Source: Candidatus Zambryskibacteria bacterium RIFCSPHIGHO2_01_FULL_43_25
GTDB taxonomy: Bacteria > Patescibacteriota > Minisyncoccia > Phycocordibacterales > Zambryskibacteraceae
Direction: 5' to 3'
Assembly (NCBI GenBank): GCA_001823695.1
Contig: MHVD01000002.1
Location: forward strand, 15,215 to 79,214
DNA length: 64,000 bases
In this document: positions 1,322 to 61,947 of the stretch, one piece after another
Layout of the letters: each line of letters starts with the position of its first letter
How positions within the stretch are numbered: the stretch's first letter is position 1
Position numbers and translations under genes: made by a program
Notes under the pieces: generated by a model
Database searches by the model: none
What the model was told of the DNA's origin: nothing
What the model saw: only the letters and a program-made list of their open reading frames with translations

Positions 1322-2095
1322 TTGACCACGTCTTTGTTTTGGCAGCTCTTTGCCGAGAAAAAGCCGATCATCGCAATGGTTCATGTCTTCGATGGTAAAC
1401 GTCAACGGCAACTTGACCAAGCCCTTGAAGACACTGAACGGCTCCAGCGGGGTGGTGTAGATGCACTACTCGTAGAGAACTATGACTGCGGGTATCTCGA
1501 CGCGAACTGTGCTACTGATGAGATGGCGGAACGGCTCGCCGAAATCGCCATCGCAGTCAAGAAGCACTCGAAAGTCCCCGTCGGCATCAACATCCTCCCG
1601 AATGATTACTGGAAGTCGTTCTCGGTAGCACTTTCTACTGGCGGCGTGTTCATCCAGATGGACCACATCACCGGCGACTTCGGTGGTTGCGAGTCGGTTG
1701 ATCCTGATGATTACCTAGCAACACGAGAGTGCTATCGTAGCGTCGCGGTCTTCGGCGGCATTCATCCCAAATACTATGAGCTCCTAGAGCCGACTTGCTC
1801 ACTCGCGGAATGCGCAAGGAAAGCAATGTCGCTTGCGGACGCAGTGGTAGTAACTGGGCAAGTCACAGGTGATCCTGCGACTCTTGATGACCTTCGCGTT
1901 GCGCGGGAGGCAATAGGCGAGCATCCTCTCGTCATAGGAAGTGGCCTGACTCCACAGAATGTACAGGCGCAACTTGCTATTGCTGACGGCGCGATTGTTG
2001 GCACAGCATTCAAGAGGAGTGGTGTGCGGCCCAGTGAGCCGGTTGATGTTGAGTTGGTCAAGCAACTTATGGACGAAGTTGCGAAGTTACGATAA
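1322..2095 (+). CDS. BtpA/SgcQ-family (TIM-barrel) protein on a GC-rich (~58% GC) island
   Basis: TTG start preceded by AGGAGGTGG. Motifs such as IIAMVHV...GVDALLVEN are BtpA-like. Codon usage is GC3-rich, unlike the neighbouring genes. Confidence 0.5.
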   Translation: MTTSLFWQLFAEKKPIIAMVHVFDGKRQRQLDQALEDTERLQRGGVDALLVENYDCGYLDANCATDEMAERLAEIAIAVKKHSKVPVGINILPNDYWKSFSVALSTGGVFIQMDHITGDFGGCESVDPDDYLATRECYRSVAVFGGIHPKYYELLEPTCSLAECARKAMSLADAVVVTGQVTGDPATLDDLRVAREAIGEHPLVIGSGLTPQNVQAQLAIADGAIVGTAFKRSGVRPSEPVDVELVKQLMDEVAKLR

Positions 2096-2108
2096 ACACA
2101 GTCAGTAC

Positions 2109-2146
2109 GGGGCGTCTCGATGCGTCGAGCGCCCTTTCTGTTTCTT
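2109..2146 (+). terminator. Intrinsic terminator after the BtpA-like gene
   Basis: GC stem ggggcgtctcga / tcgagcgccc followed by tttctgtttctt. Confidence 0.5.
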
Positions 2147-2201
2147 AACTTTGATTTTAATGTGTTATAATTTGATATATATAAGCTAATTTAAAAACAA
2201 T

Positions 2202-2408
2202 ATGTTTTTTGGATACCTTCTTGTTGTTGTAGGTTCCTGGTTCTTCCTTGAGAACATGGGAGTAATCGCCGAGTTGCCGACAGGACTCTATTGGCCGGTA
2301 GTTGTCATCATTATCGGTTTGTGGATGGTTGGCAAGCGCAAGGGCTACTGGTGTGACCATGGAAAACATGGAAACTGCGATAAATGTGGCAAGGGTGGAA
2401 TGAACTAG
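2202..2408 (+). CDS. Small 2-TM membrane protein with Cys/His-rich C-terminal tail
   Basis: Two hydrophobic helices and a KRKGYWCDHGKHGNCDKCGKGG tail. Confidence 0.35.
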   Translation: MFFGYLLVVVGSWFFLENMGVIAELPTGLYWPVVVIIIGLWMVGKRKGYWCDHGKHGNCDKCGKGGMN

Positions 2409-2416
2409 CAGTTTTG

Positions 2417-2857
2417 ATGTCAGAAGATAAAAAAATCTCCGAAGAGGAAATCAAAGAGAAGCTTTCCGCTGAAGCATATAATGTGCTTCGCCGAGGCGGG
2501 ACAGAGGCGCCATTTTCCGGCGAATATGTTCATACCAAAGATAGGGGAATGTATAAGTGCAGGGTGTGCGGCTCGCAACTTTTCTCGTCTGATACGAAGT
2601 TTGATTCTGGCACTGGCTGGCCGAGCTTTGACTCGGCAATACCTGGAAGCGTTGAGTTCGTAGAAGACCGCTCTTATGGCATGGCGAGGGCAGAAGTCAG
2701 GTGCAAGAAGTGCGGTTCTCATTTGGGCCATGTGTTTGACGAACCTTCGGCAAGCTCAGGACAGGTGGATGGCCAGATACTTCGTCAAGACGGCAAACCA
2801 GTAACAAAAAGGTATTGTATAAACTCGGTATGTCTGGACCTGGAGAAAGACAAGTAA
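2417..2857 (+). CDS. msrB: Peptide-methionine (R)-S-oxide reductase MsrB
   Basis: RGGTEAPFSGEY...CRVCGSQLF...GWPSF...RCKKCGSHLGHVFDE...RYCINS is the classic SelR/MsrB signature with two CxxC pairs. ATG at 2417 chosen over the overlapping upstream in-frame start. Confidence 0.85.
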   Translation: MSEDKKISEEEIKEKLSAEAYNVLRRGGTEAPFSGEYVHTKDRGMYKCRVCGSQLFSSDTKFDSGTGWPSFDSAIPGSVEFVEDRSYGMARAEVRCKKCGSHLGHVFDEPSASSGQVDGQILRQDGKPVTKRYCINSVCLDLEKDK

Positions 2858-2944
2858 AAATTTCTAATTAACCCGAACAATTTTTACTTTATAAAATTTG
2901 AACGGGCAAGCCTAGTTTCTAATTGACCTAAAATAATAAAAAAC

Positions 2945-3565
2945 ATGACAAACAACAAAGGAACAAAATTTTTAATAAGTTTGCTTGTTGTCATCATAAT
3001 TATTCTGGCCGCTTTTTTGTTTCGGGACAAATTCTCCAAAAAGGAAGTTGTGCCGGAAGGCAGCGTGCTGGAGACCAAAGTTGCCGAAAAAGAAGTTTTT
3101 ACAAATGAAAAATACGGTTTCTCCCTGTCATTTAAAAGTAGTTTATCCGCAAAAAAATTGAGTGATAGGCAATTTTCAATAATTAACGGCGGTGAAGAGG
3201 TAGTTCTGGAAGGAGTGGTTCTGGACAATGCTGGAGAATCTGAGCTTCAAAGTTATGAAGAATTTGTCTTGGACAGTTCAAGACTTCTGTGCGCCGAACA
3301 GCTTGAATCAGAATCCAAATGTTTGCTCATAGAGGATATTAGCTCCTTTACCTCCAGCGCGGGAGTAACGGGCGAGATATTTTATATTCGCGGCATTGAG
3401 CCAAATAGTGGAGACCTGCGCGGGCCGGTCTTTGCTTTTAATGTCTCGGACGAAAGCTCGGGGACAGTAAGCGCCCTGCTCATCTTTAGCCCGTTTAATC
3501 AGACTTTTTCCCAAGGTCGCGACGGCTTGGTGCGGGAGATTGTTGACACTGTTGAGATTGATTAA
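2945..3565 (+). CDS. Hypothetical exported/membrane-anchored protein
   Basis: N-terminal TM/signal-anchor LISLLVVIIIILAAFLF. No recognisable domain. Confidence 0.4.
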   Translation: MTNNKGTKFLISLLVVIIIILAAFLFRDKFSKKEVVPEGSVLETKVAEKEVFTNEKYGFSLSFKSSLSAKKLSDRQFSIINGGEEVVLEGVVLDNAGESELQSYEEFVLDSSRLLCAEQLESESKCLLIEDISSFTSSAGVTGEIFYIRGIEPNSGDLRGPVFAFNVSDESSGTVSALLIFSPFNQTFSQGRDGLVREIVDTVEID

Positions 3566-3593
3566 ACCACAGTCGGTGGATAGTGCTTTTGAC

Positions 3594-3748: not shown

Positions 3749-4012
3749 ATGAACAAGAGATTGTTTGTCGGCGGTATTCCGTGGGCGGCTACAGAAGATG
3801 AGCTTCGTAGCGCCTTTGAGAAAGCCGGCACTATCGTTGACCTTCAGATCAGGAGAGATCCTACGAGGGACAATCAGTCGAAAGGTTTCGGCTTTGTCGA
3901 AATGGCGACTGATGAGGAGGCCCAAGCGGCTATTGATCTGCTCAATGGAAAAGACTTCCAGGGCAGAACTCTGACTGTCAATGAAGCTCGTCCGATGAGA
4001 CGACCAGAATAA
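3749..4012 (+). CDS. RRM-type RNA-binding protein (RNP-1 motif KGFGFVEM)
   Basis: LFVGGIPWAATEDELRSAFEKAG...KGFGFVEM...AIDLLNGKDFQGRTLTVNEA is a canonical RRM. Confidence 0.8.
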   Translation: MNKRLFVGGIPWAATEDELRSAFEKAGTIVDLQIRRDPTRDNQSKGFGFVEMATDEEAQAAIDLLNGKDFQGRTLTVNEARPMRRPE

Positions 4013-4026
4013 GTAGATATTCTTGC

Positions 4027-5183: not shown

Positions 5184-5646
5184 TAGCCGTCAGTTAATAG
5201 TAATTGGAATAATTTTTCTCATTGCTGTTATTCTGTTTGGTTTTTTTGCCCTGAAGCATGACGGCCGCGATGTAGGGAATAATTCCCTTGAATTCACCGA
5301 TAGGATACAAGTAGGGGATGACTTTATCAATGTGGCAATTGCCGACTCTCCGGAAGAACAGGCGAAGGGGTTATCGGACCAGTTGCCAATTGAGAGCCAT
5401 CAGGGTTTGCTGATCACCTTTCAGTCAAGCGGAATATATAGCATATGGATGAAGGACATGAAATTTGCTTTGGATGCAATCTGGATAGATAAAAATGGAG
5501 AAGTTGTTGATATAAAAACCAATTTAACTCCGGAAACGTATCCGGCGGTGTTTACTCCAAGGGTTCCGGCTTTGTATATATTGGAAATTCCGGCTGGTTC
5601 GGTCGAAAATTTCGGCATAAAAATAGGAGACAAGGTGGTTTTTTGA
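5176..5646 (+). CDS. DUF192-domain protein
   Basis: Signal anchor followed by ...AIADSPEEQAKGLSD...IWMKDMKFALDAIWIDKNGEVVDI...ALYILEIPAG, the DUF192/COG1430 pattern. Confidence 0.6.
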   Translation: MNNSRQLIVIGIIFLIAVILFGFFALKHDGRDVGNNSLEFTDRIQVGDDFINVAIADSPEEQAKGLSDQLPIESHQGLLITFQSSGIYSIWMKDMKFALDAIWIDKNGEVVDIKTNLTPETYPAVFTPRVPALYILEIPAGSVENFGIKIGDKVVF

Positions 5647-5920
5647 GATATCTATCAATCTTTTCGGCTTGCCCCGTTAGATAAATACTAAAATATCACC
5701 GTTTGTCTGACATGTTTTATTGCCGACGTAGAGCGAGGGTGCTGGAAAGTCAGCAGACTTTCCAGCACCGAGCCGAGGAGAGCAAAAAAAGGTTTAATGC
5801 CCCGCCCCTCTGGGGCGAACCCGTGCGAGCTCTCCGCCGGCTGGCGGAGAGCTCCAAATCGGGCCCAAGGTCCTGCCCTGGGGTTAATACCTTTTATTTA
5901 ATGGGGTATAATAAATACGT

Positions 5921-6946
5921 ATGCAAAAAATCAAAGTTGCTGTAAACGGTGCGGGACGCATAGGCCGTGCTTTCATAAAGTTGGCCATTGAGAGGGAAGA
6001 AATAGAAATCGTCGCCGTGAATGATCTCGGCGATATTGAAAATATAGCTTATTTAATTAAGTACGATTCCGTTTACGGCAAGGCGCCGTTTGAAGTGTCT
6101 GTTGAAAGTGATGTTCTTAATCTGGGCGGGAAGAGGATAAAATTTATTTCTGAAAAAGAACCCGCAAAGTTGCCATGGGCCGAGCTTGGCATTGATGTCG
6201 CGGTGGAATCAACCGGTTTTTTTGTTACTTATGAAGAAGCAAAGACTCACCTTGATGCAGGGGCAAAGAGAGTGATAGTTACCGCTCCCATGAAAGATGA
6301 CCCGCATCCGGAAATCCCCGGGGCCACTGTGCTTATGGGTGTCAATGAGTCGCAACTCTCAACTTGTGTTATAAGTTCAAATGCCTCTTGCACTACAAAT
6401 GCGGCAAGTCCACTTATAGCAATTCTTGATGAAGCGTTAGGTATTGAGAAGGCGGTTCTAAACACCGCGCACGCCATGACAAACAGCCAGCCCACGGTGG
6501 ATGGGCCGAACAAACATAATGTTCGGGAAGGAAGAGCCGCTTCGCACAATATCGTGCCGAACACAACGGGTGCGGCAATCGCGGTTACGAAAGCTTTTCC
6601 CAAGCTCTCCGGCCTTTTTGACGGGGTGGCTATGCGGGTTCCTGTAATCGCCGGTTCAATGGTGGATGTTACGTTTATCTCAAAGAAAATGACCAGTAAA
6701 GAAGAGGTGAATGAGATACTGAAAAATGCATCTAAAGAAGAACGTTGGAAGAAGGTTTTCTCCGTTACCGAAGAAGAGCTGGTATCAAGCGACATAATAG
6801 GGAGTCGCTATGGCGCTATAGCAGATTTGTCCCTCACCCGGGTTGTCGGCGGCAATCTAGTGAAAGTTCTGGCGTGGTATGACAACGAAATGGGGTATAC
6901 ATATACTCTTTTGGAACATGTGGTGAAAGCAGGCCAGGGAATATAA
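5921..6946 (+). CDS. gap: Glyceraldehyde-3-phosphate dehydrogenase, type I
   Basis: NGAGRIGR Rossmann motif and SNASCTTNAASPL catalytic Cys motif. A TATAAT sits 8 nt upstream of the ATG (leaderless or near-leaderless). Confidence 0.95.
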   Translation: MQKIKVAVNGAGRIGRAFIKLAIEREEIEIVAVNDLGDIENIAYLIKYDSVYGKAPFEVSVESDVLNLGGKRIKFISEKEPAKLPWAELGIDVAVESTGFFVTYEEAKTHLDAGAKRVIVTAPMKDDPHPEIPGATVLMGVNESQLSTCVISSNASCTTNAASPLIAILDEALGIEKAVLNTAHAMTNSQPTVDGPNKHNVREGRAASHNIVPNTTGAAIAVTKAFPKLSGLFDGVAMRVPVIAGSMVDVTFISKKMTSKEEVNEILKNASKEERWKKVFSVTEEELVSSDIIGSRYGAIADLSLTRVVGGNLVKVLAWYDNEMGYTYTLLEHVVKAGQGI

Positions 6947-6951
6947 TTAGT

Positions 6952-7257
6952 ATGAAAAAATACAATAAATTGGTCAGGGATAGAATTCCGGAAACTCTTG
7001 ATTTGAAAGGTATACCATATGAAAAGAGGATTGCATCTACGGAGGAATATAGAAATGAACTCATAAAAAAACTCAAAGAAGAAGTGGATGAATTTATGAA
7101 AGAAGAAAGTATGGGTGAACTAGCTGATGTTGTGGAGGTTGTTGAATCACTAAAAATCTTGGATGAATTTAAAGACGTTGAAAAACTTAGAATTCAAAAG
7201 AAAGAAGAAAGAGGAGGATTTGATAAAAGAATAATTCTTAAGGGGGAAAAGGATTGA
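6952..7257 (+). CDS. MazG-like / phosphoribosyl-ATP pyrophosphohydrolase-like NTP pyrophosphatase
   Basis: KLVRDRIPE...EY...L..KL.EE..EF...EELADVVEV..SL pattern of small MazG-like proteins. Confidence 0.6.
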   Translation: MKKYNKLVRDRIPETLDLKGIPYEKRIASTEEYRNELIKKLKEEVDEFMKEESMGELADVVEVVESLKILDEFKDVEKLRIQKKEERGGFDKRIILKGEKD

Positions 7258-10394: not shown

Positions 10395-10688
10395 ATGAAA
10401 AAGATAATTTATATTTTAATTATTATTGCTATATTTGGTAGCCTGATTTTAGTCATAAATCGTAAAAATAACAACGGTATTAGTAACAACGGTATTAGTA
10501 ACAACGGTATTAGTAACAACGGTATTAGTAACAACGGTATTAGTAACAACGGTATTACAGAGGAAGAATGTAATAACCTCAGTGGGAAAATTGTTACCAT
10601 TCAAGATCAGTTAGATGGTGGAATTAGCGGAAAAGTTATTGGTAATATTAAATATAATCAAGCAGGATTGCTTTGTGTTGTTGAATGA
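10395..10688 (+). CDS. Small exported protein with (NNGIS)n tandem repeat
   Basis: N-terminal signal/TM, then NNGISNNGISNNGISNNGISNNGISNNGIT. Confidence 0.5.
   Translation: MKKIIYILIIIAIFGSLILVINRKNNNGISNNGISNNGISNNGISNNGISNNGITEEECNNLSGKIVTIQDQLDGGISGKVIGNIKYNQAGLLCVVE
10470..10557 (+). repeat. Perfect 15-bp tandem repeat (aacaacggtattagt) x ~5.9, in-frame within the CDS
   Basis: Exact copies at 10470, 10485, 10500, 10515, 10530 and a partial copy at 10545. Confidence 0.9.
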
Positions 10689-10718
10689 AACTCTATAAAT
10701 TAACCTAAAACAACGAAG

Positions 10719-11057
10719 ATGAAGAAAAAACTGGAAATAAAAGCGGGTCTTTATAAACACAGCAAAAGCGGGAAGCTGTATAGGGTCGATGAGCTCGACC
10801 GTGAGTACGAGGCCCGCAACCTCCGACCGGACCCCTACGCTGTGACCCAGGTGATGGCTGACGATCCAGCCTTCGCAGACAAGCGTCCTGTCGCTGTTCA
10901 GTGGCGTGACAAGCGTGGATGTGCTTGCTACGCGCTCTTCGACCGCGACGACGCCGGGCGTGAGGTCGGTATTGTCCGCCGCCGCGGTAGCGGTAGCAGG
11001 TGGAGTCGGAGCGTCCAGTTCGGCGGCGTTCGCCTGCCTGCGCAGGCAGGCAAGTAG
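10719..11057 (+). CDS. Chimeric small protein: AT-rich DUF1653-like N-terminus joined to a ~65% GC C-terminal segment
   Basis: N-terminus KAGLYKHSKSGKLYRV resembles the DUF1653 G-YRHYKG-LY-V motif. From ~10790 the composition switches to very GC-rich, continuing through the terminator. Confidence 0.35.
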   Translation: MKKKLEIKAGLYKHSKSGKLYRVDELDREYEARNLRPDPYAVTQVMADDPAFADKRPVAVQWRDKRGCACYALFDRDDAGREVGIVRRRGSGSRWSRSVQFGGVRLPAQAGK

Positions 11058-11111
11058 TACATGGCCACCGGTTTCTTGGGTCCTCCTAGTCCCCTGGAAC
11101 ATGGTTTCCGG

Positions 11112-11142
11112 CCCCCGCGGCTTACACAGCGCGGGGGTTTTG
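11112..11142 (+). terminator. Intrinsic terminator (GC-rich)
   Basis: cccccgcg-loop-cgcggggg followed by ttttgtat. Confidence 0.65.
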
Positions 11143-11170
11143 TATATAATAGGATTTGTCGCTCCGAAAG

Positions 11171-12154
11171 CTAAATAATTTTTGGCTTATAATCCTCGGG
11201 TGCTTCGCGCAAGTATTTTTCTATAGTTTCTTTATCTAAAAGTCCGCGCTGGGCGCCGATGTACTGAACAACCGACATTGAATTGATTGGCCCCCACATA
11301 AGTGCCTCCTCAACACTTTTGCCTAGTGCAATTGCTGCCGTAAATGTGGAAGAGAAAGCGTCTCCTGCGCCGGTTCTATCGTATGGCGGTTTTGGGTCTG
11401 GATACAGAGGCATAAAGAGCATTTTTTGTCCGTCAAAAGTATAAGCGCCTTTTCTGCCGTCAGTAATTACGGTGAGCTTCGGACCGAGTTCGTGTATTTT
11501 TTGCAAAAGCAATTTTATATCTACCTCTTCTATAATTCCAAGAATTCTTTTTGCCTCCTCTACATTGCAGAAAAATATCTCTGTTCTTTTGTAAATTTCT
11601 TTCAAATTATCCACGCCCATATTCATCTGGAAAGTTCCCGGCTGAAAGACCAATTTTGTACTGGGGTGATTTTCTAAAAAGCCGGCAATCTCTTTGTGAT
11701 AGGAGAGAGTTTTTTCTCCAAGCGAACTTAGATATATCCATCTTGGCTCATCCAAATCGGGCAGTTTGTAGTTGTATTCGTGGTGTTTCACCAAAATCGT
11801 TCTGTCGTCTTCAAACCACAATACATAATGGTAGTTCGTCTCTTTATGCTGGTGGGCTTTTATAAATTCTATTGAAACACCGTTGCGTTTAAGCGTTGCC
11901 AAACACTCCCCGCCATTATGGTCATCGCCGACGTTGGCAACAAGCGCCGAAGTTAGTCCGAGTCTTTTGGCCGCCACCGCCGCATTCGGCGAATTGCCGA
12001 CAGCGCGGACAACTTCCACAAACTCATAAGGCACCTTGTCGCCAAAAGAAAGCAGAAGTTTTCGCTTGTCGCGGCTAGTTTCGGCGGACTTTATCCGGAT
12101 GAAAGCATCTGTCGTTATATCACCGATAGCAACAAAATCGAAATGTGAACTCAT
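11171..12154 (-). CDS. PfkB-family carbohydrate kinase (ribokinase/fructokinase-like)
   Basis: FVAIGDITTD... N-terminus and DRTGAGDAFSSTF ATP-binding motif. Confidence 0.75.
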   Translation of the reverse strand: MSSHFDFVAIGDITTDAFIRIKSAETSRDKRKLLLSFGDKVPYEFVEVVRAVGNSPNAAVAAKRLGLTSALVANVGDDHNGGECLATLKRNGVSIEFIKAHQHKETNYHYVLWFEDDRTILVKHHEYNYKLPDLDEPRWIYLSSLGEKTLSYHKEIAGFLENHPSTKLVFQPGTFQMNMGVDNLKEIYKRTEIFFCNVEEAKRILGIIEEVDIKLLLQKIHELGPKLTVITDGRKGAYTFDGQKMLFMPLYPDPKPPYDRTGAGDAFSSTFTAAIALGKSVEEALMWGPINSMSVVQYIGAQRGLLDKETIEKYLREAPEDYKPKII

Positions 12155-20187: not shown

Positions 20188-20260
20188 GCCACCTTAGCTC
20201 AGTTGGTAGAGCAACGCTTTTGTAAAGCGAAGGTCCCCGGTTCGAGTCCGGGAGGTGGCT
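20188..20260 (+). tRNA. tRNA-Thr (anticodon UGU)
   Basis: Cloverleaf: acceptor gccacct/aggtggc, D arm gctc-agttggta-gagc, anticodon stem acgct/agcga with loop ttTGTaa, T arm cccgg-ttcgagt-ccggg. CCA not encoded. Confidence 0.85.
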
Positions 20261-20272
20261 CAAAGACTAAAC

Positions 20273-28311: not shown

Positions 28312-28782
28312 CTATTGATGCTTCAAATCTCTTAAAACTACAATTGCAGAGATTAAGCTCAGCAGGAATATTGTTGAACCGAAGAAACAAGGAGTAAGAA
28401 ATGGATTGGTGATAAGCTGTCCGGAGCAACCTATAACTTCTGTAGTCTGAGCTCCGTAAAATCTCAGCAACTCCAAAGTCATATTGGTCCAAGCAAAAAT
28501 GTTTCCAGCTACAAGTAAAATTAAAAGCCTTTTAATATTTTTTATTTGCGCAGGTAACTCTTTTTTGCCGATTTTTATAACCCAGATAAGAGCTATGAGA
28601 AATGCTATAGCGCCATAGAAGCACGGGGTGGTTACCGGATTTGGAGTAAAACAGTCTTGTATCTTAAATATAGTGCCTTCTATTTTCGCGAACCTTAAAA
28701 AGTCATTTGCGACAGAAAGCCAAGCGAAAACTGTGCCTGCTAAAAGCGGTAAAAATATAATTCTATATGTTTGTTTTTCCAT
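28312..28782 (-). CDS. Hypothetical 4-TM membrane protein with internal duplication and paired Cys motifs
   Basis: Two homologous halves, each FAW...C-x(n)-TPC(F)(Y/F)G-TM. Local GC ~33%. Confidence 0.4.
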   Translation of the reverse strand: MEKQTYRIIFLPLLAGTVFAWLSVANDFLRFAKIEGTIFKIQDCFTPNPVTTPCFYGAIAFLIALIWVIKIGKKELPAQIKNIKRLLILLVAGNIFAWTNMTLELLRFYGAQTTEVIGCSGQLITNPFLTPCFFGSTIFLLSLISAIVVLRDLKHQ

Positions 28783-29467
28783 ATTGATTATTGCTAGTAA
28801 CTAGGACTTTATTTTTTGCCCGGTTCAATAAAAGTGAAAAAGTCAACATCCAAATTGACGAAAGTATTTCAATTAGTAGTGGTAGAGTATCTATTTTAAA
28901 ACGCATTGTTAAAAAAACTAGAACTGCAAGAAGCGTAGCAATCATGGCTGTAACAAGTGGCATTTTTTTGCTGTTTAGTTCCGCAAACATCTTCTCAAAA
29001 GCAGTTAGGAATCTTTTTGAAATGTCCTGGAAAATAAAAAATAGAATTAATACAGAGATTGTATAAAATGTAACAGGATCAGATTTTCCTGGTGATGACC
29101 CAAATATCACCATAACCATTATAACAGTAAGTATTAGAAAAATACCTATAAGAACAGTAAAAAAAGACTTAATACATGTAACCAACCAAATTGATATGGA
29201 TCCATTTGGACTTTTATTAGGAGTTATTTTTTGCAAATACTTAATGAAGATCGTGGAAATTATAATAAAAAATACAAAACTTGTAGGAATTAATGATAAT
29301 ATTGGGACAGGTAGAAAAGTAATTTCAGGCATTGACATTATTGTAGGGGGTGTGGGTTTATTATAATTTATTATGAATATTGGAAGAGTTGAAATAATGA
29401 TCCCCAATAACGAACAAAGCAAAGCAACTATTAAAAACCCGTGTTTTATAAGAAAAGAGTTTTTCAT
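28763..29467 (-). CDS. Hypothetical polytopic membrane protein
   Basis: About 6 TM segments. Start taken at the internal ATG (MKNSF...), which overlaps the thrS stop by 4 nt. Confidence 0.4.
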   Translation of the reverse strand: MKNSFLIKHGFLIVALLCSLLGIIISTLPIFIINYNKPTPPTIMSMPEITFLPVPILSLIPTSFVFFIIISTIFIKYLQKITPNKSPNGSISIWLVTCIKSFFTVLIGIFLILTVIMVMVIFGSSPGKSDPVTFYTISVLILFFIFQDISKRFLTAFEKMFAELNSKKMPLVTAMIATLLAVLVFLTMRFKIDTLPLLIEILSSIWMLTFSLLLNRAKNKVLVTSNNQYGKTNI

Positions 29468-29468
29468 A

Positions 29469-31394: not shown

Positions 31395-31436
31395 AACAAC
31401 GCATAAAAAACGCTATAGCGTTTTTTATGCGTTGTT
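31395..31436. repeat. 42-bp perfect palindrome (family member 1) between convergent transcription units
   Basis: aacaacgcataaaaaacgcta|tagcgttttttatgcgttgtt. Confidence 0.8.
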
Positions 31437-35893: not shown

Positions 35894-35982
35894 CCTACCC
35901 GCCATAAGCCTAGTACCATACTTAGCAAAAATAGAAATGGTAGCAGTTTATCCGAATGAAGTAATGCTTTTGACAGCAGGCG

Positions 35983-36018
35983 ATTGACAGGCGAGTTGAC
36001 ATTTGTATATTTTGATAT
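35983..36018 (+). promoter_or_regulatory. Promoter region with three tandem TTGACA hexamers; the last is paired with TACTAT at 17 nt
   Basis: ttgacagcaggcgattgacaggcgagttgacatttgtatattttgatattactat. Confidence 0.35.
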
Positions 36019-36068
36019 TACTATACTAACAGATTGCACCTCCGGAGAAACATTTGCAAGGAGTCAGC

Positions 36069-36341
36069 ATGGACCTATCAAATGATGAGAAAGGCCGGCG
36101 GTTTGGCTTCTTTTACTTTGGTGGTTATCCAGTGAGAGAGGAAGAGAGAATCGCTGGTTTTGGCTGGGAAGGGGAACCCGGTGCCGTAGTTCCAAAGCGC
36201 TTTGACGATGAGGCATTCAATGAGCTGCTGGGTGATCCCATAGTTCCGAAGTCTCAGCCACAGAAGAGAATCAGCCAACCACCATCTCCGGCCGAAACAA
36301 AGCCCGCTGGGTTTTGGGAAGGGGACGAGCCTATCCGCTAG
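36069..36341 (+). CDS. Hypothetical small protein (moderately GC-rich) with its own terminator
   Basis: ATG with AAGGAG 7 nt upstream. The ORF track starts at the TTG 36054. Confidence 0.35.
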   Translation: MDLSNDEKGRRFGFFYFGGYPVREEERIAGFGWEGEPGAVVPKRFDDEAFNELLGDPIVPKSQPQKRISQPPSPAETKPAGFWEGDEPIR

Positions 36342-36362
36342 CCCGGATCTTCGGATGTATGT

Positions 36363-36400
36363 GCCCCAGCGCGCTTTCGCGCGCTGGGGCATTGCTTTTT
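36363..36400 (+). terminator. Intrinsic terminator
   Basis: gccccagcgcgc-tttc-gcgcgctggggc followed by attgcttttt. Confidence 0.7.
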
Positions 36401-36428
36401 ACCTGATTTTATATACAATGTGCCTATT

Positions 36429-40765: not shown

Positions 40766-40805
40766 CAACTATATCCCTTATTCGCGCGAATAAGGGATAT
40801 AGTTG
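40766..40805. repeat. 40-bp perfect palindrome with GCGC centre
   Basis: caactatatcccttattcgc|gcgaataagggatatagttg. Confidence 0.85.
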
Positions 40806-40885: not shown

Positions 40886-40923
40886 ATTCTATTTGATATT
40901 TTGCGCAAAATATCAAATAGAAT
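40886..40923. repeat. 38-bp perfect palindrome with GCGC centre
   Basis: attctatttgatattttgc|gcaaaatatcaaatagaat. Confidence 0.85.
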
Positions 40924-40969
40924 GCTGGATTAGCGAGTAATAGTTAACGTTAAATTTTTTAAGCACAAA

Positions 40970-41000
40970 CCCTGACGTAACAAGTCCCGTTACGTCAGGG
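40970..41000 (-). terminator. Intrinsic terminator (GACGTAAC hairpin family) for the minus-strand GC-rich gene
   Basis: ccctgacgtaac-loop-gttacgtcaggg; on the minus strand it is followed by tttgtgctt. Confidence 0.6.
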
Positions 41001-41017
41001 TGGCCACGGGGGTCAGT

Positions 41018-41401
41018 TCACAGTTCCATACATGCTCTGATGAACTTCTCAGTGATTGCGTACCGTCCGTCGGTGAACAATACGAGGTATGGCGGTGCAT
41101 CCGTCCACTCTTCTCTGTTGGCCTGCTTGAGACTTGCATCGTCGTACCACACTCCGGACAGTCCGAAAAACATCAAGTCTGGGTCCCAACCTTGAGAGTT
41201 GTAGAACTCAACCAGCTCCCGAATCGTAAATCTGGTCCACTCTCCACGTGATCTGAAGAAAAGGAGCAGTTTGGCGGCGGCGACCTCAACCTCATGCTTG
41301 CCAAACCTCCCTACCGCGAGCCCTCTCATCTCGATTTGCAATGGAGTTGACAGTTTGAGGGCGGCCGCGTCCGAATTGCTCCATACCTCTTGGGTGGTCA
41401 T
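41018..41401 (-). CDS. Hypothetical protein on a GC-rich cassette (~56% GC)
   Basis: AGGAGG RBS before the internal ATG (MTTQEV...). No recognisable domain. Own terminator. Confidence 0.4.
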   Translation of the reverse strand: MTTQEVWSNSDAAALKLSTPLQIEMRGLAVGRFGKHEVEVAAAKLLLFFRSRGEWTRFTIRELVEFYNSQGWDPDLMFFGLSGVWYDDASLKQANREEWTDAPPYLVLFTDGRYAITEKFIRACMEL

Positions 41402-41533
41402 TTTCCAGCCTCCTGTTTTCTGTGGTTGTACTTCCAAAGCAAAGACTATCACTGGCAGAGTAGTGTGTCAAAAGCCGAAACTCCTGATGTATAAGTATGT
41501 TGAAAGAAACCTAAAATCTACACAAAAACAAAA

Positions 41534-41567
41534 CCCCGACGTAATTACGTATGTAATTACGTCGGGG
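41534..41567 (-). terminator. Intrinsic terminator (15-bp stem, same GACGTAA family) for the CYTH gene
   Basis: ccccgacgtaattac-gtat-gtaattacgtcgggg; on the minus strand it is followed by ttttgtttttgtg. Confidence 0.7.
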
Positions 41568-41600
41568 GGCAGAACTGTTTCAGTTGTCAGGGTGAGCGGG

Positions 41601-42101
41601 CTAACCCAACGATCCTCGGGCGATTTCTCTGTTGGAGTACTTCTTCTGGCCGGTGACTTCAACGTATCTCCTACCGAGGTGCTCGGGGAAATGAACCATC
41701 TCGTTCATGTCCTCAAGCTCAACCTCAAGGATGACCAGCCAGTCCACGGGCTCCAAATACTTATCCAGTTCGAATGTGTGGCCCATGTATTCAAACGTAT
41801 AGCGGATCTTTCGGATGGTGGCGCTATCAAGGTCCCTTTCTTTCAGAAAAAGAGAGTACTCTTCGGCGCTGATTTCCAACTCTTCCTCTTGGCGAATGCC
41901 TGTCTTGCCCGCCGGCTTCTTGGTTGTATAGAAGAATCTCGTGGAACCTGCGGTGATGACCTTTCTGACGCGCCTTTCAGCGCCGGAATCGTCCGTGAGG
42001 TAGGTCTGCTCTATCTCTCTTACGGATGCGTCCTCCGGAATCATGAACGGGCTGAAGTCCGATACGCGAAACTTCCTCTCAATCTCAAGCTTGTTTGCCA
42101 T
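41601..42101 (-). CDS. CYTH-domain protein (CyaB/thiamine-triphosphatase-like triphosphate tunnel metalloenzyme)
   Basis: N-terminal LEIERKF (ExExK), acidic EEELEISAEE and LEVELE strands. Own promoter TTGATC-16-TAATAT and AGGAG RBS upstream. Confidence 0.65.
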   Translation of the reverse strand: MANKLEIERKFRVSDFSPFMIPEDASVREIEQTYLTDDSGAERRVRKVITAGSTRFFYTTKKPAGKTGIRQEEELEISAEEYSLFLKERDLDSATIRKIRYTFEYMGHTFELDKYLEPVDWLVILEVELEDMNEMVHFPEHLGRRYVEVTGQKKYSNREIARGSLG

Positions 42102-42169
42102 TGCAGTTCTCCTGTGGAGGAAGGAACTATACCAACGTCTATATTACATTCTTAATTTTTTTGATCAAA

Positions 42170-44095
42170 CTACACAAAAACAAAATCCAGTGTTCTTTTG
42201 TCCAGGTCGGCATCAACGAGTTTCACTCTTACTTTGTCTCCAAGCGTAAACTTCCTTTTTAATTTTGTGCCAACGATAGCGTAATTTTCTCTTTGGAGTT
42301 CATAAAAATCATCAGTCATATCTCTCATTCTGACCATTCCTTCCGCTTTGGTTTCAGTTTCTTCAACATAGACACCCCACTCGGATACTCCGGAAACGAC
42401 AGCATTAAATTCCTCGCCGACATGTCCGAGCATATACTCAACCTGTTTGTATTTGATTGAAGCTCTCTCCGCTTCGGCAGCAGAAATTTCCTTGTCTGAC
42501 GAGTCTTGAGCGATGCTTTGATAGAGAGCGATCTCATCTCTGGCGACCTGTCCGCTTGTCAGGTAACGCTCAAAAAGCCGGTGAACTATGAGGTCGGGAT
42601 ACCGGCGGATTGGGGAAGTGAAATGGGTGTAGTACTTGAAAGCCAAGCCAAAATGGCCAATGTTTTTTGTGGAATAAATCGCTTTTGCCATAGAACGGAT
42701 AGCCGCAGTCTTGACCAAAGATTCTTCCTCCGTGCCATCAACTTGTTTGAGCAGGACGTTCATATCCTTTGCGGAAATCGTACCGTTCTCAATCGGCAGG
42801 TGGTATCCCAGCGCTTTGATAAAGACCGACAGCTCGGCAATCTTATCCCTGTCCGGTATGTCGTGTATTCGGTATATGAACGATTTGTTCTGGCGGGTTT
42901 TCTTCTCGTCTTTGTACATAAACTCGGCTACCTCGCGATTTGCCAAAAGCATAAATTCCTCCACCAATTTGTGGGTGTCCTTACGCTCCTTCTTGTATAT
43001 GCGGACGGGTACGCCGTCTTTATCAAGCTCAAACTTTATTTCTTCCGCTTCAAAATCTATGGCGCCGGCGGCAAACTTCTTCTCAGCGAGTTTTTTTGCG
43101 ATGCGATTCAGTATGTTGAGTTCATTATAAAAATCACCCCGTTTTTTGTCCAAAATATCTTGTGCCTCTTCATAGACGAAACGCCTGTTCGAGTGAATTA
43201 CTGTTTTGCCGAACCACCTCTCCAAAACCTCCCCGTTTTCATTCATTGTGAAGACGGCCGAGAAAGTCAGTTTATCTTGGTTGGGGTTCAGGGAGCAGAG
43301 TTCGTTTGAAAGCGTTTCCGGAAGCATCGGGATAGTGCGGTCAACGAGGTAAACCGAAAATCCTCTTTTGCGCGCCTCCCTGTCTAGTGCATTTTTAGGC
43401 CTGACAAAAAAGGAAACATCCGCGATGTGAATACCTATTTCATATTTGCCGCCAGGTAGCTCTTTTATGGAGAGCGCATCGTCAAAGTCTTTGGCGTCCT
43501 GCGGGTCAATAGTAAACGTTGTAGTGCCCCGGAAGTTTCTTCTTTTGGCTGCCTCGACTTCAAATTCTTTCGGATATCCTGTCTTTATCTTTTGGGCCTC
43601 TTTCTCAACCGTGGCGGAAAACTCGGTATCAAAACCTCGCTCGAGCACAATGGCCCGCATCTCAACCTCGTGGCTGCCCTTGCGGCCGAGGATTTGAATG
43701 ACCCTGCCTTCAGGCGACTTGTCGGGGTCCTTCCAGCTGATTATTTCAACAAATACCTTGTCTCCATCTTTGGCCTTTTTTGATTTTGATGAATGGACGA
43801 AAATGTCCCGATACATTCGGCGATCGTCCGGCTTCAGGAAAAAGAAGTCACCCGACTGCTCCAATACTCCAACGAAGCGTATCTTTGTGCGCTTAATAAT
43901 CCTTAAAACCTCGCCCTGCTGCCGCAGATTCTTCTTTTTGGGAAAAACGGCTATTTCCACCTCGTCGCCGTTAAGAGCGGTTTTAAGCAGGCCTTCAGGA
44001 ATTTCAATATCTTCTTCAAATCGGTCCGACTCGAAGTAGCCGATTCCCCGGCCGGTTACTATTATCGGTCCGGTAAGCTTAGTGTTTTCTTTCAT
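42170..44095 (-). CDS. rnr: Ribonuclease R (RNB family) with C-terminal S1 domain
   Basis: Cold-shock/OB N-terminus, RNB catalytic region and S1 domain GEEFNAVVSGVSEWGVYVE. Confidence 0.85.
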   Translation of the reverse strand: MKENTKLTGPIIVTGRGIGYFESDRFEEDIEIPEGLLKTALNGDEVEIAVFPKKKNLRQQGEVLRIIKRTKIRFVGVLEQSGDFFFLKPDDRRMYRDIFVHSSKSKKAKDGDKVFVEIISWKDPDKSPEGRVIQILGRKGSHEVEMRAIVLERGFDTEFSATVEKEAQKIKTGYPKEFEVEAAKRRNFRGTTTFTIDPQDAKDFDDALSIKELPGGKYEIGIHIADVSFFVRPKNALDREARKRGFSVYLVDRTIPMLPETLSNELCSLNPNQDKLTFSAVFTMNENGEVLERWFGKTVIHSNRRFVYEEAQDILDKKRGDFYNELNILNRIAKKLAEKKFAAGAIDFEAEEIKFELDKDGVPVRIYKKERKDTHKLVEEFMLLANREVAEFMYKDEKKTRQNKSFIYRIHDIPDRDKIAELSVFIKALGYHLPIENGTISAKDMNVLLKQVDGTEEESLVKTAAIRSMAKAIYSTKNIGHFGLAFKYYTHFTSPIRRYPDLIVHRLFERYLTSGQVARDEIALYQSIAQDSSDKEISAAEAERASIKYKQVEYMLGHVGEEFNAVVSGVSEWGVYVEETETKAEGMVRMRDMTDDFYELQRENYAIVGTKLKRKFTLGDKVRVKLVDADLDKRTLDFVFV

Positions 44096-44204
44096 CGTTT
44101 GAATTTGTCACGGTTAATCATCTTACTATTTTATGGTGTTATTTTCCAGTTTCTATTGAAACTCTGGTTAATGACTTCTGCAAAAAACAATGGACCCCAT
44201 TTTT

Positions 44205-44233
44205 GACATATTTTCTCTGGGCAGATAATCTTT
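44205..44233 (+). promoter_or_regulatory. Promoter TTGACA-17-TAATCT upstream of a small membrane-protein gene
   Basis: ttgacatattttctctgggcagataatct, then GGAGGAGGG RBS. Confidence 0.4.
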
Positions 44234-44254
44234 ACCTGGATTAAGCACACCCTT

Positions 44255-44512
44255 TTGGAGGAGGGTACGATGGAGAGAAACACAGTCGGTAGCCGCGGCG
44301 CTCTGAATCACGAGTACTGCCGGAGCGAATCACTTGGCTGGATGAGGATTTTGATTGTCCTCATCGAATATCCCTTTTTCGTGTTTCTTACCGCACTGGG
44401 AGTCGTCGCTTTCTTCTTACTTGGTTCAATTCTGGTGGTTGTATTCGGCTGGCGGAATTTGCTCTCGGATGCTAGGGAGTCTACCGACTCTCTCTTTTGG
44501 ACCGATTCCTGA
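44255..44512 (+). CDS. Hypothetical small membrane protein
   Basis: Strong RBS, one long hydrophobic span, followed by a very strong terminator. Confidence 0.45.
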   Translation: MEEGTMERNTVGSRGALNHEYCRSESLGWMRILIVLIEYPFFVFLTALGVVAFFLLGSILVVVFGWRNLLSDARESTDSLFWTDS

Positions 44513-44530
44513 CATGGCCCACAACTTGCA

Positions 44531-44576
44531 AACCGCCCCCGTTTCGCCCTAGGCGAGACGGGGGCGGTTCTTTGTT
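44531..44576 (+). terminator. Intrinsic terminator (~18-bp GC stem)
   Basis: aaccgcccccgtttcgcc-ctag-gcgagacgggggcggtt followed by ctttgtt. Confidence 0.75.
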
Positions 44577-60434: not shown

Positions 60435-60486
60435 AACAAAACAACACATAAAAACCGCTATAGCGGTTTTTATGTGTTGTTTTGTT
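60435..60486. repeat. 52-bp perfect palindrome (family member 2) in a divergent promoter region
   Basis: aacaaaacaacacataaaaaccgcta|tagcggtttttatgtgttgttttgtt. It shares the core with the 31395-31436 palindrome, differing by compensatory substitutions. Confidence 0.8.
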
Positions 60487-60570
60487 ATGCGATATACATG
60501 GTGTGTATTATGTTAGAAAATGGTATATACAATACCCGAAAAAGTGGCGGAAATATGCTAACCTACACTC

Positions 60571-61371
60571 ATGTCTTTTTTTGAAGCGACAATCCTAGGC
60601 CTGGTTCAGGGCCTTGCCGAGTTCATACCAGTTTCATCTTCCGGCCATCTTATCTTGGCCAGAGAATTTTTCAGCCTCGCCAGTTTTGAAGATTTGGCGG
60701 TTGACGCCGTGCTTCAGCTGGCGACCGCCCTGGCCGTACTTTTATATTTCCGCCGCGATGTCCTGTCTCTGCTTCGGACTTTTTTCAGATGGATCGGACG
60801 AAAACCCGTCTCGGATACAGATTCAAAAATGTTATTAGCTATAATTATTGGCACTATACCAACAGTGGTATTCGGGCTTCTTCTTGAGAATTATATGGAA
60901 ACAGTTTTCAGGAACGCATCCTTGGTAGCGTTGGCACTTCTAGCCGGAAGCGCGTTGATGATGTTTGCCGAAAAGCGCTTCAATAGCTCTGCCGTTAAAG
61001 AAATTTCGGCCAAGATGGGATTCTTCGTTGGTCTTTTTCAGTCTCTGGCTTTGATACCCGGGGTATCGCGTTCCGGTGCAACGATTTCCGGAGGGTTATT
61101 AAATGGTTTAAGCAGGGTAGAAGCGGCGCGTTTTAGCTTTCTTCTGTCTTTGCCCATAATCTTGGGTTCAGGAATTAAAAAACTTCTTGAACTTAATATA
61201 GGAGGCTCTCTCTCCGATATCGGTTTGCCACTTCTCCTTGGGGCAGTAGTTGCTTTCGTATCAGGTTTTTGGGCTATAAAATTCCTTATAAATTATCTGA
61301 AAACCAGAACTCTCAATGTATTTATCATTTACAGAATTGTTCTGGCTGTTTTGATTTTTATTCTTTTGTAA
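60571..61371 (+). CDS. uppP: Undecaprenyl-diphosphatase
   Basis: GLVQGLAEFIPVSSSGH... and ...PGVSRSGATISGG BacA motifs. Confidence 0.85.
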   Translation: MSFFEATILGLVQGLAEFIPVSSSGHLILAREFFSLASFEDLAVDAVLQLATALAVLLYFRRDVLSLLRTFFRWIGRKPVSDTDSKMLLAIIIGTIPTVVFGLLLENYMETVFRNASLVALALLAGSALMMFAEKRFNSSAVKEISAKMGFFVGLFQSLALIPGVSRSGATISGGLLNGLSRVEAARFSFLLSLPIILGSGIKKLLELNIGGSLSDIGLPLLLGAVVAFVSGFWAIKFLINYLKTRTLNVFIIYRIVLAVLIFILL

Positions 61372-61460
61372 AACATTCAACCTACAAGTCAGACCTGTAG
61401 GAAACGATCTGTAGGAAACATGTGTTTTTTATTATCAGTAATTGCAATAAAAGTGAAAGC

Positions 61461-61505
61461 CCGCCGGTGCTTGCCTGCCTGAGCAGACAGGCGCGCGCGG
61501 CGGGC
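61461..61505 (-). terminator. Complex GC hairpin terminator for the minus-strand GC-rich gene
   Basis: gcccgccg...gcctgcctgagcagacaggc...cggcgggc; on the minus strand it is followed by tttcacttttatt. Confidence 0.5.
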
Positions 61506-61513
61506 CCATTTCC

Positions 61514-61822
61514 TTACCGTAGTAAGGGAACGACATAGAGGGTTCCGGTTCGGCTGAGGGTGTTGAAGTATACCCGGTGTCGCTTGCCGAGCATGTTGAG
61601 GACGAGGTTCCAGCTGTTACCGCTACCGTCCTCAACCTGAATGCTTTCAATGAATGCATCGAATACTTCACCCTTCACCTTGAATTGCGGATTCGTCTGC
61701 AGGATCATCGGTTCCACAGTGAAGGAAATCTTTCTTCCTTCATGCCGAAGCCGGAGGGCGTCGAAGAGTTGTTCCCGCGACGGGCCAGCGACGATGATTT
61801 TCCGTGTCTCTTGGTTGGTCAT
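61514..61822 (-). CDS. Hypothetical protein (102 aa) on a GC-rich (~54% GC) cassette
   Basis: GGAGG 6 nt before the ATG (MTNQETRK...). No recognisable domain. Confidence 0.45.
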   Translation of the reverse strand: MTNQETRKIIVAGPSREQLFDALRLRHEGRKISFTVEPMILQTNPQFKVKGEVFDAFIESIQVEDGSGNSWNLVLNMLGKRHRVYFNTLSRTGTLYVVPLLR

Positions 61823-61912
61823 AACGACCTCCATGAAGAACAATCTCCTTATTGGGGAAGAAGTACCCCGTTGCTCCGAGGAGCCACCTACCCATAACGA
61901 GTAGGAATTCTT

Positions 61913-61947
61913 TTTACATTATATCACATTTAATATATAAAAGTCAA
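61913..61947 (-). promoter_or_regulatory. Consensus promoter TTGACT-18-TATAAT on the minus strand driving the GC-rich 61514-61822 gene
   Basis: Minus strand reads gcTTGACTtttatatattaaatgtgaTATAATgt. Confidence 0.5.

Follow-up and report, generated by a model that had tools for sequence, protein, structure and literature searches.

Homology-facilitated illegitimate recombination is known in naturally transformable bacteria, and Oliveira, Touchon and Rocha reportedly placed integration hotspots between conserved core genes in 2017. A survey of aquifer Patescibacteria described hundreds of genomic islands and single-gene transfers, attributed up to 13% of genome length to horizontal gene transfer (HGT), and found 83% of the detected single-gene transfers to be between Patescibacteria, at a mean divergence of ∼24% (PMC12455944). 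Here we analyse 64,000 nucleotides of the Rifle-aquifer Patescibacterium Candidatus Zambryskibacteria bacterium RIFCSPHIGHO2_01_FULL_43_25 (contig MHVD01000002.1, positions 15,215 to 79,214; hereafter the window), in which a first-pass annotation had singled out six short G+C-rich loci, namely a BtpA-like gene and five open reading frames (ORFs) named here by their coordinates or, for one, by its CYTH domain. It had proposed that each is a single-gene unit behind a native-like promoter, acquired either from a high-GC host or community member or through a dedicated cassette-capture mechanism. Our results indicate that these units are probably accessory genes or gene fragments, horizontally acquired from higher-G+C donors and placed in short variable gaps between housekeeping blocks. 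We regard this as ordinary HGT, which reveals no new mechanism.

The window has a GC content of 43.65%, against the ∼42% assumed in the first-pass annotation, and is crowded with housekeeping genes (rpoB/C, sigma-70, primase, GyrB, PolIII alpha, RNase R/III/HII, tRNA synthetases, and pentose-phosphate and glycolytic enzymes). Segments of 300 nt average 43.7% GC (standard deviation 5.0, 99th percentile 54.7%). The contrast in composition noted earlier is real, the six loci spanning 51.5-65.2% GC: BtpA (1322-2095) has 53.6%, 10790-11142 has 65.2%, 36069-36400 has 54.5%, 41018-41401 has 53.1%, CYTH (41601-42101) has 51.5% and 61514-61822 has 52.4%. Most thus lie ∼1.5-2 standard deviations over the 300-nt mean, and 10790-11142 more than 4. 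The excess is located at synonymous sites. G+C at third codon positions (GC3) is 0.554 in BtpA, 0.719 in 10791-11057, 0.505 in 36069, 0.633 in 41018, 0.677 in CYTH and 0.650 in 61514, four units therefore falling between 0.63 and 0.72, compared with a mean of 0.45 (standard deviation 0.078) for window ORFs above ∼100 aa taken by a simple longest-ORF rule.

Codon fit was scored as synonymous usage against 28 genes conserved in relatives, with z values derived from length-matched blocks of those genes. The scores ranged from -2.2 to -4.6: BtpA -4.6, the 10791 part -4.1, 36069 -2.8, 41018 -3.0, CYTH -2.2 and 61514 -4.6. All 28 conserved genes scored between -1.33 and +2.25. The six loci are therefore outliers in composition and codon use beyond chance. 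Atypical composition and codon use, taken as a mark of HGT, was found at these six loci and neither in the RNA-recognition (RRM) gene nor in an 80-aa ORF at 44270-44512. Since stretches within MsrB, rpoB, rpoC and HisRS also reach 53% GC or more, GC alone is a weak criterion, and the case for foreign origin is carried by codon use together with synteny.

Gene order was compared across two sets of relatives' loci, together ∼160 and spanning 31-57% GC: 80 genome loci around RNase R (about 58-48% identical; Paceibacteria and relatives; 31-56% GC) and 80 metagenome loci centred on TktC, the C-terminal subunit of transketolase (80-70% identical). The order rpoC-rpoB-TrmD-KhpA-S16-RNaseR-SMC-like-RNaseIII-NusB/NUDIX-L32-RNaseHII-PolIIIa is kept in ∼60 of the 80 genome loci, and the metagenome loci keep RRM-DUF192-GAPDH-RpiB-Rpe-TktN-TktC-PfkB-FBA-FAD oxidase-L25-...-RF1-S2-Tsf. 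No homolog of CYTH, 41018, 36069 or the 80-aa ORF was present in the 80 RNase R loci, and none of BtpA or the 10790 ORF in the 80 TktC loci. Five of the six listed loci (BtpA, 10790, 36069, 41018 and CYTH) had no counterpart anywhere in the ∼160 loci. Orthologs in the same position with similar composition, which had been named beforehand as the sign of an ancestral, gene-specific bias, were found for none of these five and only for the RRM gene. That gene, put forward earlier as a lesser member of the pattern, lies upstream of DUF192-GAPDH in 6 relatives; its conserved position, together with normal codon use, shows it to be native.

The units occupy just those gaps between conserved genes that vary widely among relatives: 6-4153 bp for RNaseR/SMC-like, 35-1456 bp for L32/RNaseHII, a median of 123 bp and a maximum of 9.3 kb for S16/RNaseR, and from overlap to 1940 bp for TktC/PfkB. 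In 53 relatives, the RNaseR/SMC-like gaps held 87 ORFs in 60 families. Such gaps are hotspots that collect lineage-specific genes of varied composition, and this genome has a good share of the GC-rich ones. We also considered a general GC-rich trend in the relatives' gaps and rejected it: gap minus locus GC was 0.00 ± 0.04, and 9 of 87 gap ORFs exceeded +0.08.

BtpA is the locus at which a source can be seen. The protein matches Pfam PF03437 (BtpA/SgcQ) over profile positions 2-253 of 254 (1e-38, 133.6 bits, cutoff 30); its score lies under the NCBIfam equivalog and subfamily cutoffs, and family membership alone is assigned. Homologs grade from 86% to 50% identity, and those that are named belong to Paceibacterota, Parcubacteria and Patescibacteria. 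At the DNA level, the gene is 78-80% identical to the copies in three other loci (L186, L190 and L191; loci are numbered with the prefix L), but only over window positions 1302-2143/2157. Homology begins ∼20 nt before the start codon, with AGGAGGTGGCAC common to the window and L190, and ends 47 to 62 nt after the stop, just beyond a shared hairpin, GGGGCGTCTCGATGCGTCGAGCGCCC. The block ends are ragged, because L186 and L190 share homology up to 117 nt after the stop, ∼70 nt more than the window does. Between the window and L186, BtpA is 81% identical, compared with 43% for sigma-70 and 47% for RNase III; similarity above that of core genes in a different context was found for BtpA alone.

At least four unrelated contexts carry the gene. 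It follows a 147-aa ORF and precedes CutA1 in L186 and L187, follows a short-chain dehydrogenase in L190-L192 (with a transposase in L190 and a large serine recombinase in L191, 1.2 kb from the BtpA copy), follows FtsZ with HicAB/ParE nearby in L193, and has different contexts again in L188 and L189. L192 and the same-species contig L009 come from one ENA assembly, so two BtpA carriers co-occur in one sample. Gene and locus GC are 54.0 and 38.3% in L186, 56.2 and 41-42% in L190-192, 52.8 and 45.7% in L193, 61.8 and 58.5% in L188, and 45.4 and 40.9% in L189. Across three different AT-rich hosts, the clade of ∼80% identity thus stays at 54-56% GC. In L188 the gene looks compositionally at home; this 58% GC contig also carries an RRM gene 61% identical to that of the window and looks like a Patescibacterium. 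The window copy has a GC3 of 0.55 compared with 0.62-0.68 in other copies, which points to partial amelioration. The alignments show that BtpA circulates among Patescibacteria as a promoterless block of ∼850 bp made of ribosome binding site (RBS), ORF and terminator. With no more than ∼20 nt of conservation ahead of the start codon, the BtpA promoter would be local.

In this genome BtpA borders an MmeI/type ISP restriction-modification enzyme and a SocA/Panacea toxin-antitoxin pair. The latter, at 99-1065, consists of a helix-turn-helix SocA/Panacea antitoxin-like gene (called at 193 aa in the window and at 232-240 aa elsewhere) and an overlapping 131-aa partner. Upstream of it (L194 1181-5744) come a DUF1508 gene and the MmeI/type ISP restriction-modification enzyme, which is ∼1000 aa long. 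The antitoxin-like pair, the DUF1508 gene and the enzyme together form a defence island abutting BtpA. Several assemblies break just right of BtpA, which suggests strain variability there.

At 10790-11142 the idea of a single-gene unit did not hold: the interval overwrites a DUF1653 gene and is not self-contained. In two of the closest relatives (L114 and L152), TktC is directly followed by an intact DUF1653 gene of 71-75 aa (Pfam PF07866, 1e-23 and 8e-19). In a tblastn comparison, the L114 protein matched window positions 10731-10787 with 58% identity (E 1e-4), and the alignment stops there. The remnant is joined in frame to the following segment, giving a chimeric ORF of 112 aa (10719-11057) whose AT-rich start, MKKKLEIKAGLYKHSKSGKLYRV, has 39% GC and which shifts to 65% at ∼10788; composition change points fall at 10768 and 11137. 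No homolog of 10788-11142 was found in relatives' loci, and the segment gave no Pfam match in any reading frame and no Rfam, plasmid or viral match. Judging from these alignments, a foreign segment appears to have replaced the 3′ two-thirds of the native DUF1653 gene, keeping its promoter and first 23 codons. It would be a literal case of promoter capture, yet not a self-contained single-gene unit. The first-pass proposal of promoter capture is therefore supported for two units, BtpA and 10788-11142.

At CYTH, flanking repeats enclose the unit's candidate promoter. Direct repeats CTACACAAAAACAAAA bracket CYTH at 41518-41533 and 42170-42185 (16 nt exact, 20/22 when extended). The second copy consists of the last five codons (DFVFV) and stop of RNase R, whose 16-nt tail can also be written TTTTGTTTTTGTGTAG, and the first forms the T-rich tail of the CYTH terminator. 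No other non-tandem direct repeat of the window is as long, and simulations give 0.125 such repeats per window; as a flanking repeat it fits target duplication or microhomology-guided insertion of a piece carrying its own promoter. The protein matches Pfam PF01928 (3e-8, 34.1 bits against a gathering cutoff of 23.2), has the N-terminal ExExK motif (EIERK, residues 6-10), and matches phage family phrog_6660 more strongly (1e-17). Its best homologs are 44-46% identical. Of two homologs with retrieved contexts, one lies in a phage-like contig (78 kb, 64% GC) and the other in a 56% GC contig that carries anaerobic ribonucleotide reductase, ComEC, and rnmV- and ksgA-type genes and looks Firmicutes-like by gene content.

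The 41018 unit lies side by side with CYTH, and their hairpins are alike, CCC(T/C)GACGTAA.... Its product belongs to a real family of ∼130-aa proteins (178 clusters, best identity 55%). It gave no Pfam match, and the clusters of its top homologs yielded neither a named homolog nor an organism name; an AlphaFold2 model (predicted local distance difference test score, pLDDT, 89) had no significant fold match in PDB (best E 1.2), where no sequence match was found either. Best-match affiliation, the check suggested earlier, thus led to Patescibacteria, including a 58% GC carrier, for BtpA, and for CYTH and 41018, with best matches of 44-55%, to no donor that could be named. In the gap between the SMC-like gene and 41018, two different spacerless perfect palindromes, both A/T-rich, stand 80 bp apart at 40766-40805 (20+20 nt) and 40886-40923 (19+19 nt); possible roles include those of operators, cruciform-forming sites and element ends.

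The build of the units described earlier was largely borne out. Apart from 10790-11142, the loci have the ORF-plus-terminator arrangement, and five of the six (BtpA, 36069, 41018, CYTH and 61514) have near-consensus -35/-10 elements and an AGGAG-type RBS, read from the sequence. At the 3′ end of all six stands a G+C-rich hairpin with a T run behind it. GC is 36-40% in the 120 nt upstream of the units and 50-81% in the terminator hairpins. A promoter-consensus scan of the region returned 38 sites where shuffles expect 33, not above controls overall, so the unit promoters are consensus matches, not proof of function. Long perfect palindromes between other genes, at 31395-31436 (21+21 nt) and 60435-60486 (26+26 nt), share the core AAAAAC(C)GCTATAGC(G)GTTTTT and look like native bidirectional terminators, A/T-rich and unlike the hairpins of the units. 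Because native-looking terminators are A/T-rich, the G+C-rich hairpins look imported with their genes, as is directly shown for BtpA. No motif common to the units as a class was found. Flanking direct repeats were sought at every unit and were convincing only at CYTH; an 11-nt pair at 61447/61937 is at chance level.

Table 1. Positions and predicted signals of the G+C-rich units and related features in the window (promoter elements are consensus matches)
Feature	Position	Strand	Elements
BtpA likely promoter	1250-1255 / 1272-1277	+	TTGACT / TAACAT, 16-nt spacer; outside conserved block
BtpA block	1302-2157	+	RBS AGGAGG 1310-1315; ORF 1322-2095 (TTG start, 257 aa); hairpin 2109-2134; T run to ∼2146
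RRM gene	3749-4012	+	native, outside the pattern; 50.4% GC; codon-fit z +0.69
DUF1653 remnant	10719-10787	+	first 23 codons; AT-rich promoter region upstream, 39% GC
Putative foreign segment	10788-11142	+	65% GC, ∼355 bp; hairpin arms 11112-11119 / 11130-11137, then T run
36069 unit	35996-36401	+	TTGACA 35996-36001, 17 nt, TACTAT 36019-36024; RBS AAGGAG 36058-36063
36069 ORF	36069-36341	+	90 aa, no family; hairpin 36362-36391 and T run
41018 unit	40960-41471	-	-35 TTGACA 41471-41466, 17 nt, -10 TAGTCT 41448-41443; RBS AGGAGG 41414-41409
41018 ORF	41401-41018	-	127 aa; hairpin 41001-40969 and T run
CYTH unit and direct repeats	41515-42188	-	-35 TTGATC 42168-42163, 16 nt, -10 TAATAT 42146-42141; RBS 42113-42108
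CYTH ORF	42101-41601	-	166 aa; hairpin 41567-41534
44203 unit	44203-44576	+	TTGACA 44203-44208, 17 nt, TAATCT 44226-44231; RBS GGAGGAGG 44257-44264
44203 unit ORF	44270-44512	+	80 aa; hairpin 44533-44567
61514 unit	61449-61947	-	-35 TTGACT 61947-61942, 18 nt, -10 TATAAT 61923-61918; ∼95-nt leader; RBS GGAGG 61832-61828
61514 ORF	61822-61514	-	102 aa, no family; long hairpin 61505-61459 and T run

Two further units complete the list (Table 1), and one was added to it. The 36069 unit sits in the RNase HII/L32 gap; upstream of its ORF, at 35970-36001, three TTGACA hexamers (35970, 35984 and 35996) occur in 32 nt, and only the last has a well-spaced -10 element. For the 61514 protein, an exact-protein look-up gave no record, and a single-sequence AlphaFold2 model (pLDDT 37) was unusable. 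The 44203 unit, absent from the first-pass list, has the same build and sits in the RNase R/S16 gap; a hydrophobic stretch suggests that its 80-aa product may be a membrane protein. Its foreign origin is less certain, since its codon use is not deviant.

Several observations outside the six loci deserve record. A perfect G+C palindrome of 20 nt, GCCTGCCTGCGCAGGCAGGC, lies at 11032-11051, where it closes the chimeric ORF 10719-11057 and encodes LPAQAG. A variant lies at 61473-61492, inside the 61514 terminator, and shuffles expect none; the form present in the two units is GCCTGCCTG.GCAG.CAGGC. The palindrome also occurs at L022 3726-3745, L133 1681-1700 and L050 20501-20520. In other Patescibacteria it stands in frame within unrelated genes, being read as 'DKGLPAQAGGDY' in the L022 RNase R, compared with 'DKKRGDFY' in the window, and as 'GLSAQAGAG' in the L133 LemA. 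A related sister form, CCTGCCTGCCGGCAGGCAGG, is intergenic at L105 17083 and 20102 and at L050 378, and is followed in L105 by a terminator-like T-rich stretch. IMG/VR as a whole contains only 5 exact copies of the palindrome, which may be a small dispersed palindromic insertion element.

A+T-rich ORFs with no homolog in relatives' loci are also present, at 6952-7257 (32% GC) and 10395-10688 (30% GC), and the ORF at 28763-29509 (29% GC) is similar to them in composition. The second of these encodes 97 aa with a predicted N-terminal hydrophobic segment and contains a 15-nt tandem repeat encoding NNGIS; the ORF has 97, 92, 87 or 77 aa across assemblies of one organism, so the repeat copy number varies in the population. 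Between GyrB and ThrRS, at 28312-29509, two overlapping minus-strand ORFs (156 and 248 aa, 37% and 29% GC, neither with a Pfam match) could represent the A+T-rich equivalent of such GC-rich acquisitions. The gene for the PheRS beta chain (23161-25539) has an unusually low GC3 of 0.325, and an NlpC/P60 peptidase domain (residues 350-414) interrupts the chain between the B3/4 and B5 domains. Finally, the DUF192/GAPDH interval contains a G+C-rich non-coding stretch at 5690-5885, with perfect hairpins at 5738-5769 and 5827-5854, which folds far better than shuffled controls (z -5.2). It had no Rfam match and no DNA match in relatives' loci, and candidate readings are an uncharacterized small RNA, a stack of terminators, or what is left of another GC-rich insertion.

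Abrupt GC steps are typical of assembly chimeras, and several assemblies end just right of BtpA: L008 and L009 begin near window position 2040-2340, and the end of the NCBI contig, computed from coordinates, seems to fall near 3640. High-GC contaminating reads joined to a CPR (Candidate Phyla Radiation) contig are nevertheless virtually excluded as the cause, because the junctions are identical in numerous assemblies made independently (NCBI, JGI, ENA and Logan), which cover several samples and different assemblers. The same-species copies fetched, from aquifer assemblies, were all 100% identical in DNA. In 15-20 contigs CYTH and 41018 adjoin RNase R, six separate assemblies link BtpA to MsrB and the genes that follow, and the 61514 protein is on 11 contigs, with a 106-aa variant on 5 more. 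The chimeric ORF 10719-11057 is present in 23 contigs from independent assemblies, and the 10788 junction falls within an ORF predicted by gene callers in every assembly. Known RNA genes were considered as the cause of the GC peaks and rejected, only tRNA-Thr being found at Rfam gathering thresholds; permissive Rfam searches of 10700-11200 and 5600-5950 gave sub-threshold matches only. A structured RNA at 10788-11142 was likewise rejected (fold z -1.1 against shuffled controls; best Rfam match 19 bits, gathering score 49.5 bits). Native genes whose G+C reflects amino-acid composition, expression level or mRNA structure, that is an ancestral gene-specific bias, are a highly improbable explanation for the six loci. 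Such a bias is true of the RRM gene, rpoB, rpoC, MsrB and RNase R do reach 46-48% GC with local peaks of at least 53%, and part of the BtpA excess, at codon position 1 (0.65), reflects amino-acid content. Against it, five of the six loci are missing from every syntenic relative, and the excess lies at synonymous sites with codon-fit z down to -4.6. Moreover, distant BtpA copies follow host GC, yet 54-56% is held in three AT-rich hosts in different contexts.

How the pieces arrived is a separate question. In the dedicated capture system raised by the first-pass annotation, integron-like or other, a specific recombinase would insert promoterless ORF-plus-hairpin cassettes at defined sites behind resident promoters. 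The BtpA block is promoterless and hairpin-ended, 41018 and CYTH adjoin and have similar hairpins, a 16-nt duplication flanks CYTH, two units share the G+C palindrome, and a serine recombinase stands near the L191 BtpA. We consider such a system very improbable all the same. The units lack a common motif, are scattered over 60 kb and not arrayed, and end in short, mostly perfect G+C stems with T runs, as intrinsic terminators do; Pfam annotations and scans of most larger window ORFs showed no integrase, transposase or recombinase domain; the BtpA block ends are ragged (+47 to +62 compared with +117 nt); and the three junction types differ, one a gene overwrite, one a 16-nt duplication and one without repeat. 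Cargo of decayed prophages or plasmids is a variant of the acquisition reading that differs only in the vector, and we hold it to be unlikely that the units are remnants of this kind. In its favour, CYTH matches phrog_6660 better than Pfam CYTH and has a homolog in the phage-like contig, a transposase (L190) or serine recombinase (L191) lies near a BtpA copy, and BtpA borders the restriction-modification and toxin-antitoxin island. However, IMG/VR viral contigs held no close relatives of CYTH, 61514 or the 10790 ORF, the 41018 family profile had one distant match there, phage records (61514) and plasmid records (61514, the 10790 segment and 41018) gave nothing, and no phage structural or integration genes lie beside any unit in the window. 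A PADLOC defence search matched no unit. More speculatively, Patescibacteria might exchange promoterless RBS-ORF-terminator modules of less than 1 kb as discrete mobile units, their integration guided by T-rich or palindromic sequences without a linked recombinase and possibly tied to dependence on DNA uptake. The sequences invoked for this are the 16-nt end of RNase R that recurs at CYTH and the palindrome GCCTGCCTGCGCAGGCAGGC with its dispersed copies; we think it quite unlikely.

Horizontal acquisition from higher-G+C donors remains the reading that we favour. Pieces of about one gene in size would have been acquired repeatedly and independently, either taken up as DNA or carried in by a phage or another mobile element, and would have integrated through illegitimate or microhomology-guided recombination, not through a site-specific system. 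Transcription may come from resident AT-rich promoters at BtpA and 10790, and for CYTH from a co-imported promoter if the repeats mark the insert. The donor's G+C-rich terminator would be retained and the composition partly ameliorated after acquisition. The earlier idea of acquisition from a high-GC host stands as to acquisition, given that five of the six loci are missing in relatives and BtpA is found in unrelated contexts, but the donor need not be the host: donors are probably, at least in part, other Patescibacteria, perhaps acting via their phages or other elements.

A number of points weigh against this reading. The GC3 of the 36069 ORF (0.505) is ordinary, and the 80-aa ORF of the 44203 unit shows normal codon use (z -0.5). 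CYTH and 41018 are without relatives above 46% and 55% identity; these two may have been acquired long ago or derive from lineages not yet sampled. The synteny comparison covered five of the six listed loci, and the nearest relatives share only about 58-60% (RNase R) or at most 80% (TktC) identity; because they are fairly distant, absence from them dates the gains only loosely, and gene-by-gene loss in other lineages may formally account for it. The donor is identified only broadly, and for BtpA; 36069, 61514 and the 10790 ORF were assessed without a large protein-database search. The integration route, whether transformation or a mobile vector, is one that we infer.

Taken together, these results offer a base-pair view of gene gain in a streamlined CPR genome, where single genes or fragments enter a few variable gaps of a rigid housekeeping backbone. 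The acquired genes are predicted to be expressed from resident promoters and to keep donor terminators. The BtpA block and the DUF1653 fusion provide clean, datable examples for amelioration rates and integration junctions in uncultured Patescibacteria.

In comparison with known systems, the units do not resemble a classical genomic island (>10 kb, with a tRNA or transfer-messenger RNA target, an integrase and direct repeats): they measure 0.35-0.9 kb, only CYTH is repeat-flanked, and the only tRNA (Thr, 20188-20261) adjoins no unit. Like integron cassettes, the BtpA block combines a promoterless ORF with an inverted repeat behind a resident upstream promoter, and 41018 and CYTH stand in tandem. 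Unlike them, the units show no IntI or attI, have terminator-like hairpins and no conserved end core, are dispersed, and have imprecise boundaries; their hairpins are 25-47 nt long, short of the 57-141-nt imperfect palindrome of attC, whose core GTTRRRY was not itself searched for. The first-pass alternative of a dedicated capture mechanism thus finds no shared motif, no integrase or transposase in the scans, dispersed units and junctions that are heterogeneous and ragged.

The likeness to integration hotspots is closer. The RNaseR/SMC-like, L32/RNaseHII, TktC/PfkB and S16/RNaseR intervals likewise hold differing lineage-specific genes, although the inserts here are one or two genes, not large islands, and no tRNA, integrase or mobile-element gene lies at the spots. 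Daubin, Lawrence and Ochman are said to have found in 2003 that recently acquired genes are more often A+T-rich, whereas the atypical units here are G+C-richer than the recipient. Because this 44% GC genome stands among relatives of 31-57% GC, GC-rich acquisitions need no special explanation. As in gene fusion by illegitimate recombination, 10788-11142 appears to replace the DUF1653 3′ part and to form an in-frame chimera on a native promoter, and the T-rich tail of the CYTH terminator equals the RNase R 3′ end, a possible microhomology anchor; the event itself is read here from the sequence. The closest match is with the genomic islets and single-gene transfers of aquifer Patescibacteria (PMC12455944), which share with the units atypical GC and codon use, patchy distribution and insertion between core genes. 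Where the source is visible, at BtpA, the exchange is likewise from Patescibacteria to Patescibacteria, with copies ∼20% diverged compared with ∼24% there, in agreement with the published finding that single-gene transfers in these bacteria come mostly from other Patescibacteria.

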